Shown piece by piece: positions 24,750 to 28,268 of a DNA stretch of 64,000 bases. A model generated the notes under the pieces. It did no database searches. It was not told where the DNA came from and was given only the letters and a program-made list of their open reading frames with translations. Both the position numbers and the translations under genes were made by a program. Positions within the stretch are counted from its first letter, which is position 1. Every line of letters starts with the position of its first letter. The DNA is from Candidatus Anderseniibacteriota bacterium (GTDB lineage: Bacteria > Patescibacteriota > Andersenbacteria > UBA10190): NCBI GenBank assembly GCA_040900375.1, contig JBBDZC010000008.1, positions 2,182 through 66,181 on the forward strand. The letters are read 5' to 3'.

Positions 24750-27700
24750 GTTAAGAGTATGTGGTGGATGCCTAGGCAATGGACGGCGAAGAAGGACGTG
24801 GCCGGCTGCGATAAGCTGCGGGGAGGTGCTGAGCAACCTGTGATCCGCAGATGTCCGAATGAGGAAACTCTCTTGTGTTCACAGCACAAGAACCTCGATA
24901 CTGCAAGGTATCGACGGAGCGAACCTGGCGAATTGAAACATCTTAGTAGCCAGAGGAAAAGAAAATAATCACTAACTTATGAATTTACCCGCCGCCTGGT
25001 GGGTCCGCCGACTACGGCGGACAGCTGCCTAGCTTTTTGAGTCTTTAAGGGACCCAAGAAGCTACCGCAAGCTGTGATTGCATGAAGTTGGTAGTATTCC
25101 CTGAGTAGTGGCGAGCGAAACGGGAACAGTCCAAACTGTATTTGTGTAAGCCCATAAAGCGTTGCAAGTACAGCGTCGTGGTTATATTATTGCGTGTTTA
25201 TGGCGCGCTAATCGTAATTTGTGTGCTTGTCTAGTGGAAGATGGCTGGAATGCCTCACCAGAGCGGGTAAGAGTCCCGTACACGAAAGACGTATACAGAC
25301 GAAATGTAAACCCGAGTAGGGTAGGACATGTGCAATCCTGCCTGAAGCAAGGAGACCTACGAAAATCCGTTACAGTTTTGTCGCAAGACAGAGCTGTGAT
25401 GGATCTCCTAAGACTAAATACGCCCATTGACCGATAGTGAACTAGTACCGTGAGGGAAAGGTGAAAAGTACCCCGTTGAGGGGAATGAAATAGACCTGAA
25501 ACCGCATACTTACATAGAGTAGGAGTCCCGCCGCAAGGCGTGGATGACTGCGTGCTTTTTGCAGAACGAACCACCGAGTTCGCTGTATGTCGTTGTCGCT
25601 TAAGTCCCGCACTCGGGACGAAGGCAGAGCGAAAGCGAGTGTTAATAGCGCGAAATTCTATTTGTGTAGCAACTATCCCGCCTCTGCTGTTAGTAGAGAG
25701 GGGTATCGGCTATACCTTTAGACAATGGCATGCACGAGACCCGAAACCAGGTGATCTATCCATGAGCAGGGTGAAGCGCGGGTAAAACCGCGTGGAGGCC
25801 CGAACCCGTAGGCTGTGCAATACCTTGGGATGACTTGTGGATAGCGCAGAAATTGCAATCGAACCTGGTAATAGCTGGTTCTCCTCGAAATAGCTTGAGG
25901 GCTAGCCTCGTGAGGTAGGAGAGAGTGGTAGAGCACTGCAAGGGATCTTCCGGGCTTGTCTCGGGGACCCTAGCAAACTCCGAATGCTTTCTCAAAGAAT
26001 CACGGGAGTCAGAACGCGGGGGCTAAGCTCCGCGCTCAAAAGGGAAACAGCCCAGATCGTCGTTTAAGGTCCCAAAATACTATCTTAGTGGTAAAGGTGG
26101 TTAGGTTGCAGAGACAGCGAGGCAGTTGGCTTAGAAGCAGCCATCTGTTAAAGAAAGCGTAACAGCTCACTCGTCAAGCGACCTTGCGCCGAAAATGTAA
26201 CGGGGCTGAAGATAGTTACCGAAAACACGGACTCCCGCCTTTGGGCGGGAGTGGTAGAGGAGCATTTCGTACAGCGTTGAAGTCCTGTCGTGAGGCGGGG
26301 TGGAGCGTACGGAAGTGAGAATGGTGGTATGAGTAACAAGACACAAGGTGAGAACCCTTGTCACCGAAAACCCAAGGTTTCCTGGGCAATGTCGATCATC
26401 CCAGGGTTAGCCGGGCCTAAGCCGAGGCGGAAACGCGTAGGCGATGGACAACAGGTTGATATTCCTGTGCCGGTTATAGAGTTTGTCAGGCGTGACGGAA
26501 TGGCGGACTATGCCAGGACATACGACTTATCCTGCGCGTCACCGTAGTCGGAGCTTCTAGGCAAATCCGGAAGCTTATCCCAAACGACGAAGTGCCGCGG
26601 GAGAGTGCGGCCGCAAGGCCAAGCCTCTGCATATGAAGCGGTTCCCCGGAAAATCGTCGGACAATTGTCTCTATAGTCGTCCGTACCGCAAACCAACACA
26701 GGTGGGAAGGTGTCAGTATACTAAGGTGATCGGGAGAACCCTCGTTAAGGAACTCGGCAAAAAAGCGTCCGTAAGCTCGCAATAAGGGCTGCCAGTACTC
26801 CGCAAGGAGTGGCTGGCCGCAGCGCTTGTTTCTCTGGCGACTGTTTACCAAAAACACAGGTTCCTGCTAACTCGTAAGAGGATGTATAGGAGCTGACGCC
26901 TGGCCAGTGTCGGAACGTTAATCCTCCTGGTGAAAGCTGGGAGGCCAAGCGCCGATGAACGCCGGCCGTAACTATAACGGTCCTATGGTAGCGAAATTCC
27001 TTGGCACGTAAGTTGTGTCCCGCACGAATGGCGTCACGACTGGAGAACTGTCTCAACGAGGGACCCGGTGAAATTGCAATGTCGGTAAAGATGCCGCCAC
27101 CCTGCGGCAAGACAGAAAGACCCCGTGAAGCTTCACTACAGCTTGGTATTGGCACGTCGAACTTGTTGCTCAGTATAGGTGGGAGACTATGAAGCCTTGG
27201 CCTCGGCCGAGGCGGAGTCACCAGTGAGATACCACCCTACATGTTTGACGCGTCTAACGACGTGGTGTGAACCCACCACCCGAACAGTGCCTGGCGGGTA
27301 GTTTATCTGGGGCGGATGACTCCCAAATTGTAACGGAGTCGCCTATAAGGTCGGCTAAGTCCGGATGGAAATCGGGCTGATAGTGTAAAGGCACAAGCCG
27401 GCTTAACTGCAAGACGTACATGTCGCGCAGACACGAAAGTGGAGCTTAGTGAACCGACCGTTCTCGTGTAGAAGAGCGGAAGATCATCGGATAAAAGTTA
27501 CTCCGGGGATAACAGGCTTATCTCCCCCAATAGTCCACATAGACGGGGAGGTTTGGCACCTTAATATATCGGGGTGCAGTACGAGTAATCGTAAAGTGTT
27601 GTTAGGTCTTATTCTGTCTTTGTTAGTTAAACTAGCCCAAAACGGTGAACGCCGCGTATACGAGCGCGGTCAACGCCGTGGGAAACCAGCCTCTTTAAAG

Positions 27701-28268
27701 AAAGCGCTGGTCCCGTAACGACTGATCCCGAAAGGGAGAGGCTTTATTCCTGGTGAATAAGGCAATACGGCTAGCCCTCGGTATAAAAAAGCGACAATGG
27801 TTATCTACCGTCTGTTCGCTGCCGAGGTGAAGGCATAGTCTATCCTGCTTGGTAACAAGCAGATTCAAATTTCCGACAGCGATGTCGGCTCGTCCTATCC
27901 TGGGGCTGAAGAAGGTCCCAAGGGTTTGGCTGTTCGCCAATGAAAAGGGTACGTGAGCTGGGTTCAAACCGTCGCAAGACAGGTTGGACCCTATCTGTCG
28001 CAGGCGTGAAAACTTGAGGAGCGTCCGTCATAGTACGAGAGGACCTGACGGGACCAACCTCTGGTGTACCAGTTGTTCAGTTCTTGAGCATTGCTGGGTA
28101 GCCACGTTGGGCTGGTGATAAGCGCTGAAAGCATCTAAGCGCGAAGCCCACTCCAAGACCAGGTTTTGTTATAGACCCCTCGAAGACTACGAGGTTGATA
28201 GGCGGGAGGTGTACGCACAGTAATGTGTTCAGCCGACCCGTACTAATAGGTCAAGCTGTATGAATGCA
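24750..28268 (+). rRNA. rrl: 23S ribosomal RNA, about 3.5 kb, interrupted by a 318-nt insertion at 27562-27879 and carrying several roughly 100-nt expansion segments.
   Basis: 5' GGTGGATGCCTAGGC. Conserved blocks (GAAACATCTTAGTA, CCGTACCGCAAACC, AAGTTACTCCGGGGATAACAGGCT, GCGATGTCGGCTC, GGTCCCAAGGGTTTGGCTGTTCGCC). 3' GATAGGCGGGAGGTGTACGCACAG...GTACTAATAGG. Confidence 0.9.
27562..27879 (+). other. Intervening sequence in 23S between GGCACCU and CGAUGUCGGCUC (peptidyl-transferase-centre region, E. coli about 2500). Putative ORF-less group I intron.
   Basis: Removing 27562-27879 restores the universal sequence GGCACCT|CGATGTCGGCTC. The exon base before the insertion is U and the insertion ends in G, as expected for a group I intron. 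No ORF inside. Confidence 0.5.

Follow-up and report, generated by a model that had tools for sequence, protein, structure and literature searches.

The stretch of DNA analyzed here, 64,000 nucleotides (nt) of a contig from Candidatus Anderseniibacteriota bacterium (hereafter the window), carries a 23S ribosomal RNA (rRNA) gene that is interrupted by a 318-nt insertion at positions 27562-27879 of the forward strand. We conclude that this insertion is very probably an intact group I intron of IA-type architecture, without an open reading frame (ORF), located after the equivalent of Escherichia coli U2500 in the 23S rRNA of a member of the Andersenbacteria (Patescibacteria, or candidate phyla radiation, CPR). 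Unless otherwise stated, all coordinates given below are those of the window and all features of the rRNA locus lie on its forward strand.

Position and identity of the insertion

As read directly from the sequence, the insertion splits GGCACCU/CGAUGUCGGCUC of the 23S rRNA gene. Alignment of the gene with E. coli K-12 rrlH (L122:260-3163) using MAFFT revealed a single 318-nt insertion exactly 3' of U2500, which places it in the loop of the peptidyl-transferase centre in domain V, between the equivalents of U2500 and C2501. The 5' exon ends with GGTTTGGCACCT (last base 27561), the insertion runs from TAATATATCGGGG to CCGACAG (last base 27879) and the 3' exon resumes with CGATGTCGGCTC at 27880; read over a longer span, the insertion starts with TAATATATCGGGGTGC and finishes with TTTCCGACAG at 27879. 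These boundaries are fixed, because a shift of one base in either direction would alter one of the conserved exon bases U2500 and C2501, and taking out 27562-27879 restores GGCACCUCGAUGUCGGCUC, which is the sequence of E. coli 2494-2512. The 23S rRNA gene itself spans 24741-28265, that is 3525 nt including the intron and four expansions in domains I and II, and gives a complete match to the 2925-position bacterial model of Rfam (LSU_rRNA_bacteria, 2335.8 bits, model positions 1-2925). The first-pass annotation had claimed a 318-nt insertion at 27562-27879, at about E. coli position 2500 of a 23S of about 3.5 kb, with a U at the end of the 5' exon and a G at the end of the insertion; the alignment to rrlH, the Rfam span and the bases U27561 and G27879 bear out each of these points.

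The same annotation had taken the insertion for a candidate group I intron and had proposed a covariance-model scan and a folding of P1 to P9 as checks. In the Rfam scan, the region 27552-27862 matched RF00028 (Intron_gpI) on the forward strand only and over the full model (1-253), with 53.7 bits against a gathering score of 50, a small margin, and E = 7.9e-11 for the whole window. No other Rfam family matched at the insertion in the scan of the region, and group II intron domains were found neither in the gathering-threshold scan of the window nor in a permissive scan of 27450-27990. The unconstrained minimum free energy (MFE) fold of the intron reaches -111.8 kcal/mol (z = -4.35, with 0 of 100 shuffles folding as well) and recovers P2, P4, P5, P6/P6a, P7.1, P7.2, P8 and P9. 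A complete group I core, including the P3/P7 pseudoknot, could be assigned, and the P1-P9 core covaries in about 90 homologues, in support of the group I reading. As claimed earlier, the intron encodes no homing endonuclease: no ORF lying wholly inside it exceeds 31 aa, and the longer overlapping ORFs extend into the rRNA exons.

Orthologues, anatomy and covariation of the intron

The IF-2 encoded at 33637-35598 of the window is 100% identical to the NCBI protein of a 'Candidatus Andersenbacteria bacterium' metagenome-assembled genome (MAG), and its next relatives (81-65% identity) also come from Andersenbacteria or Patescibacteria. The NCBI taxonomy places the Andersenbacteria within the Patescibacteria group, Parcubacteria group, which corresponds to the CPR. 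Since this gene lies 5.8 kb downstream of the insertion site, the 23S rRNA genes of relatives were reached through IF-2 loci retrieved with 10-kb flanks. Four loci whose IF-2 is 70-79% identical to that of the window (L123, L124, L247 and L248) share with it the order MS-channel-like gene, 23S, 5S, IF-2, and each of them has, at precisely the site occupied in the window, an ORF-less insertion of 303-343 nt that begins TAATATAT(AT)ATCGGGGTGC; no 23S was found at the IF-2 loci of P0006, P0028, P0039 and P0068. The introns of the relatives were extracted by their exon junctions, because a global MAFFT alignment with E. coli misplaced their 3' insertions. Those of L123 and L124, the two that were compared directly, are about 71% identical to the window intron. 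RF00028 recognizes the introns of L124 (56.9 bits) and L248 (54.7 bits) but gives no match at the gathering score for those of L123 (5409-5711) and L247 (8858-9182), which are nevertheless clear orthologues with 154-169 bits on the two half-intron models described below. Because five out of five genomes carry the ORF-less intron at the same site, it appears to have been inherited with the 23S gene in this lineage.

To place these orthologues within a wider family, designated L2500 after the insertion site, a metagenome collection was scanned for the end of the 5' exon followed by the guide sequence, with the pattern GGCACCTTAAN{0,12}ATCGGGGTG. The scan gave at least 120 matches and at least 103 complete L2500 insertions, whose sizes are bimodal (268-638 and 734-910 nt). 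The intron was modelled as two halves (full alignment of 408 columns) built from the five orthologues: a 3'-half model, R1, holding P7, P7.1, P8, P8a and P9, and a 5'-half model, R2, holding P1, P2, P4, P5 and P6. MAFFT misaligned P7.1, P7.2 and P6a among the orthologues, and P7.2 and P6a were kept out of the models. One hundred loci were searched with each half-model, and the family percentages and counts given in this section refer to about 90-140 homologues among the matches listed.

The two splice sites are defined by an internal guide sequence at 27566-27577, which is identical in all orthologues. Its 3' half, GGGUGC (27572-27577), forms P1 with the last six nucleotides of the 5' exon, GCACCU (27556-27561; E. 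coli 2495-2500). All six pairs of P1 are kept in the five orthologues, and the wobble between U27561, the splice-site U, and G27572 is a U.G in 90 out of 90 homologues; P1 shows little covariation and its exon strand is invariant. The other half of the guide, AUAUCG (27566-27571), sits directly 5' of the P1 half and is complementary, with one G.U pair, to the first nucleotides of the 3' exon, CGAUGU (27880-27885; E. coli 2501-2506), which together make up P10.

P2 (27580-27593) is a 5-bp stem closed by a GUAA tetraloop (27585-27588). Its five pairs are kept in the five orthologues with compensatory changes (ACG/CGU, GCG/CGC, GGA/UCC, AGG/CCU and AAG/CUU), and across the family 99.6% of its alignment cells are paired, with double changes at every pair. 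The interval between P2 and P3 (27596-27628), a candidate P2.1, holds the conserved motif GUUAGGUCU, and no consistent helix was established there from the orthologue alignment. P3 pairs CUAGCC (27632-27637) with GGCUAG (27769-27774) and makes the pseudoknot with P7. P4 (27643-27647/27674-27678) has 99.3% of its cells paired, with double changes, and P5 (27651-27656/27665-27670) has 94-96%, likewise with double changes; in the orthologues P5 varies as CCGCG/CGCGG, CCAGG/CCUGG and CCACA/UGUGG. The A-rich J4/5 and J5/4 lie within 27643-27678, and A88 of the former as well as A111 and A112 of the latter are nearly invariant. The P6/P6a hairpin occupies 27680-27714; its three proximal pairs are kept in the five orthologues and P6a is recovered by the MFE fold.

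The 3' half of the core begins with J6/7 (GUAA) and the 5' strand of P7 (27715-27724), in which C27719 is bulged. The 3' strand of P7, UAGUCU, follows J8/7 (UGAAGGCA) within 27828-27841. P7 is invariant in the five orthologues, and the predicted guanosine-binding pair, G27720-C27840, is a G-C in 128 out of 131 sequences; J8/7 is nearly invariant in 92 distinct homologues. Two hairpins separate P7 from the 3' strand of P3. P7.1 (27726-27737; UCCC-GAAA-GGGA) belongs to the MFE fold and has 85.7% of its cells paired, with double changes, while P7.2 (27741-27763), of 9 bp, is recovered by the same fold. P7.1 and P7.2 at this place are defining helices of subgroup IA, and we assign the intron to the IA type on this basis. 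This follows the classification of Michel and Westhof (summarised in PMC3984707), in which P7.1 and P7.2, additional helices placed between P7 and P3', mark subgroup IA. P8 with its distal extension P8a (27776-27827) has about 94-96% of its cells paired and double changes at nine out of ten pairs. P9 (27845-27862) is a 7-bp stem with a GUAA tetraloop (27852-27855), 93.4% of cells paired and double changes at all seven pairs; its variants in the orthologues are GCUUG/CAAGC, ACUAA/UUAGU and UCUAG/CUAGA. The intron ends with a 17-nt tail (27863-27879) that finishes in GACAG, where G27879 is the terminal (omega) G, and the same GACAG terminus is found in 35 of the 103 metagenomic L2500 introns among the matches listed. 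A candidate P9.0 (U27843-A27876, C27844-G27875) was dropped since the pairing fails, by eye, in the L123 alignment.

A further complementarity was observed between the tail and the P2-P3 interval. The motif GUUAGGUCUUAUUCUGUC (27601-27618) is conserved in four of the five orthologues and diverges in L247. Within it, CUGUC (27614-27618) complements the conserved GACAG of the tail (27875-27879), terminal G included. This pairing is kept in L123, where one of the pairs is G.U, and is incomplete in L124. The GAC of the tail also mimics the 5' strand of P7. The CUGUC/GACAG complementarity may reflect an alternative pairing, a regulatory one or chance.

Among the five orthologues compensatory changes occur in P2, P5, P6, P8, P8a and P9, and the wider family extends this pattern. 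Standard pairs make up 92.6% of the cells in the 3' half, against 67.6% in shuffled alignments and 36-44% when the partners are slid; the corresponding values for the 5' half are 97.1%, 79.5% and 36-50%. None of 500 shuffles equalled the observed value for either half. Double changes were found at 22 of 26 pairs in the 3' half and 21 of 25 in the 5' half, that is at 43 of the 51 modelled pairs. P3, which has one strand in each half and lies outside both models, was followed separately: out of 85 distinct sequences, 66-73 form its four outer pairs, UA to CG and GC to AU exchanges occur in both directions, and slid partners reach at most 50%. When the P7.2 segment was tested sequence by sequence, 79 of 92 listed homologues formed a hairpin of 5 bp or more there although the sequences are unrelated, with a mean MFE of -7.9 kcal/mol against -2.4 for shuffles. 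GNRA loops cap P2 (81/84) and P9 (91/92), and J4/5, J5/4, J6/7 and J8/7 are nearly invariant across the listed homologues. Such conservation of core, junctions and loops is the pattern expected of a working ribozyme.

The long members of the family (730-910 nt) contain ORFs, most of them about 190-225 aa in length. These stop immediately 5' of the J6/7-P7 motif and hence lie in the P6 region. Three of them were tested, and each encodes a homing endonuclease of the LAGLIDADG_2 family (PF03161, E values of 1e-37 to 1e-41). Where these relatives hold a LAGLIDADG_2 ORF, the window intron has only the short P6a hairpin, and it is thus the ORF-less form of a family of homing introns.

Several points nonetheless weigh against the identification of 27562-27879 as an intact IA-type group I intron. 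The RF00028 score is barely over the threshold, and clear homologues in L123 and L247 score below it. The alignments produced by the covariance models are fitted to the proposed structure, so that the paired percentages lean its way, a lean that is partly offset by the slid-partner control, by P3, which was not modelled, by the P7.2 hairpin test and by the MFE fold. Neither P9.0 nor the P2.1 region could be defined, the choice of IA3 over another IA subtype is left to likeness with the archaeal L2500 introns considered below, and splicing is a step that we infer from the DNA.

A separate group of L2500 introns was noticed for its 3' end. A terminal G is regarded as a universal hallmark of group I introns. 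However, in 35 of the 103 L2500 introns among the matches listed, the last base before the 3' exon CGAUGUCGG is an A, the typical ends being ...AUGUA, AUAUA and ACAUA; examples are L137, L138, L139, L140, L142, L146, L149, L158, L161, L170 and L171. They have the guide sequence and the J8/7-P7 core of the other members, and their G-C guanosine-binding pair is intact. Together they make up a sub-lineage characterized by a short tail and a P9 capped by GAAA. No shift of the boundary was found in these introns that restores the conserved exon and a terminal G together, and no change in the P7 core was found that explains an A end rather than a G end. Either their terminal nucleotide is not a G (mature GGCACCUCGAUG), or they are cut at the G three bases upstream, which would leave UA between U2500 and C2501 (mature GGCACCUUACGAUG, a 2-nt insertion).

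A census of the genome collection used the pattern GCGATGTCGGCTCNTC, which proved too loose: about 104 of the 120 listed matches were chance matches outside rRNA. Among the census matches listed, G-terminated L2500 introns were present in at least seven Patescibacteria MAGs. The listed matches also include G-terminated L2500 introns outside the CPR, in an Omnitrophota chromosome (L019), a Solirubrobacterales chromosome (L050), Actinomycetota contigs, one of them of 1.2 Mb (L043, Actinomycetes MAG), and a Limnocylindria contig. L043, L050, L019, L049 and L101 are long contigs, for which mis-binning is unlikely. The introns outside the CPR have a shorter P1 loop (start CA...GGGGTG) and score 28-41 bits on the half-models. 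One locus labelled Gammaproteobacteria (L032) may be mis-binned, its 5' exon being identical to that of a Patescibacteria contig (L003). A blastn comparison of the window intron with the genome-derived L2500 introns gave short core matches only.

Predicted splicing and its alternatives

From the presence of P1, P10 and a guanosine-binding site we infer that the intron splices by the standard two-step group I route. P1, with its U.G pair at the splice site, would be formed in the precursor rRNA by the guide GGGUGC and the terminal GCACCU of the 5' exon. An external guanosine would dock at the G27720-C27840 pair of P7 and attack the 5' splice site, after which the terminal G27879 would take the place of the guanosine in the P7 site. 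P10, formed by AUAUCG with CGAUGU, would align the 3' exon, and the exons would be joined to give GGCACCUCGAUGUCGGCUC.

Such an intron might still need help. The window intron has no ORF of its own whereas its same-site relatives encode LAGLIDADG_2 proteins, and LAGLIDADG proteins can be maturases, as for the Thermotoga 23S intron (PMC3984707), so it could be a true group I intron whose self-splicing is inefficient and which depends in vivo on a host protein or on a maturase acting in trans. However, its core, its three GNRA loops and all its junctions are intact and conserved, as in self-splicing introns, and ORF-less forms persist in all four relatives. Moreover, Rfam finds a single intron in the 23S of the window, and the rest of the window showed no LAGLIDADG gene, although none was searched for. 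On balance we hold such a dependence to be unlikely.

The presence of the ORF-less L2500 intron in every examined member of the lineage could also be taken to mean that it has been co-opted, for instance in maturation or growth, and is more than a passenger. It might, for one, make maturation of the 23S at the peptidyl-transferase centre dependent on guanosine nucleotide levels. Another possibility, by analogy with the 23S introns of Coxiella, whose RNA reportedly has been proposed to modulate ribosomes and growth, is that the spliced intron RNA has such an effect. We consider co-option of either kind very unlikely.

Two further explanations do without splicing. A structured RNA of 318 nt retained between U2500 and C2501 should disrupt the peptidyl-transferase centre, and this counts against the retention of the intron in the mature 23S rRNA. 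There is a precedent for retention in the L1931 intron of Simkania, a bacterial 23S group I intron described as unspliced by Everett et al. 1999 as cited in PMC11270868. P1, P10, the guanosine-binding site and the junctions are under strong purifying selection, as predicted for a working ribozyme, and CPR insertions are removed from transcripts (PMC11270868), which makes retention extremely improbable. Least credible of all, to the point of having next to no weight, is an RNase III-type intervening sequence excised without ligation to leave a fragmented 23S: bacterial 23S genes often harbour such sequences, which in CPR genes are present at other sites (PMC11270868), but the insertion is a full group I core with a pseudoknot rather than a simple extended stem-loop, and their classical sites are helices 25 and 45, not 2500 (PMC11270868, PMC2801512). 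The position between U2500 and C2501, together with the selection on every catalytic element, argues against both retention and mere fragmentation.

Genomic context and comparison with known 23S introns

The 23S gene contains four other additions with respect to rrlH: 122 nt at 24971-25092 (after E. coli 229), 75 nt at 25135-25209 (after 271), 44 nt at 25359-25402 (after 414) and 68 nt at 25656-25723 (after 654). The first-pass annotation had rightly noted an unusually long 23S but had counted two expansions of roughly 100 nt, at about 24964-25080 and 25640-25730; there are four, and those coordinates were slightly off. L123 has insertions at all four of these positions and L124 at three, the one at about E. 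coli 654 not being listed for the latter. Three of the four fold as very stable stem-loops (z = -7.3, -7.2 and -4.0) and one does not (z = -0.7), and all four lie away from the classical helix 25 and 45 sites. These are lineage-specific helix extensions or excised intervening sequences and not introns.

Upstream of the 23S, the locus comprises the 16S rRNA (18505-19993), tRNA-Ile (20339-20414) and tRNA-Ala (22303-22374), and downstream the 5S rRNA (28481-28597). Protein genes lie within it, the 16S and 23S being 4.7 kb apart: a CCA-adding enzyme gene (20502-21956; PolyA_pol and HD domains, 484 aa) between the two tRNA genes, and a gene for a 251-aa protein with MS_channel_1st_1 repeats (22837-23592) between tRNA-Ala and the 23S. 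The MS-channel-like gene precedes the 23S in all four relatives, and the cca gene is also found in L247 and L248, where pyrE/pyrF-type genes are added beside it. The 23S genes of relatives carry elements that are absent from the window: a second Rfam group I intron beside a LAGLIDADG_2 ORF in L124 (5795-6741) and a LAGLIDADG_1 ORF inside the 23S of L247 (7570-8256). In L123, a weak additional match to the 3'-half model was seen at 6005-6183. Intron content elsewhere in the 23S therefore varies within the lineage while the L2500 intron is constant.

Introns of this kind are well documented in the CPR. In a survey of these bacteria, 82% of 23S genes contained insertions, 45% of which were Rfam group I introns, 222 of those ORF-less; the introns clustered at sites 23IS6-14 around the peptidyl-transferase centre, and the rRNA insertions were removed from transcripts (PMC11270868). 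The window intron resembles these introns in its host clade, in its location in the domain V region and in the Rfam model that it matches, and the surveyed introns, which are scattered across CPR phyla, come in ORF-less and LAGLIDADG-bearing forms as does the L2500 family. The sites named in the survey are 1917, 1931, 1952, 2593, 2604 and 2657; 23IS9-11 fall in the interval from 1952 to 2593 with coordinates given in figures only (PMC11270868), and the identity of 2500 with one of the numbered sites could not be confirmed from the text. LAGLIDADG_1 is the main family at the survey's listed 23S sites, whereas the sampled L2500 relatives encode LAGLIDADG_2. A literature search on the name 'L2500' found nothing.

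With rRNA introns already very common in the CPR, an L2500 intron in Andersenbacteria is ordinary. It adds one example with a covariation-supported secondary structure to a large described set and matters little alone. Two of the five orthologous introns fall below the RF00028 gathering score, however, so that Rfam-based surveys of the CPR probably undercount such introns. Together with alignments of about 100 sequences, the two half-intron models define an L2500 family of IA type with ORF-less and LAGLIDADG_2 forms, and positions 27562-27879 should be removed from the 23S before it is used for phylogeny or structure work.

Beyond the CPR, the classical bacterial 23S introns, those of Thermotoga (L1931), Coxiella (L1917/L1951), Simkania (L1931) and cyanobacteria, also lie in domain IV/V and often carry LAGLIDADG ORFs (PMC3984707, PMC1995217), but they occupy other sites (1917-1951) and are mostly IB4-like or of other subgroups as reported. 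The chloroplast intron Ft.rrl.6 of Floydiella (PMC2997540) shares site 2500 with the window intron, is ORF-less and has a similar size (381 bp), but it resides in an organelle and belongs to subgroup IB, so that it would lack P7.1 and P7.2. The archaeal introns IA3.2 and IA3.3 (Nawrocki et al. 2018, PMC6125680) are likewise inserted at LSU/2500 (large subunit rRNA) and are of IA type, while their hosts are archaea and their length is about 800 nt; they are likened to the window intron by description only. The archaeal IA3.1, at LSU/2593, has a LAGLIDADG ORF in P6 (PMC6125680), as do the long L2500 relatives. It is only these archaeal L2500 introns that, by analogy, suggest the IA3 subtype for the intron of the window (PMC6125680). 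By its P7.1/P7.2 architecture, the window intron is nearer to the archaeal IA3 introns than to that of Floydiella.

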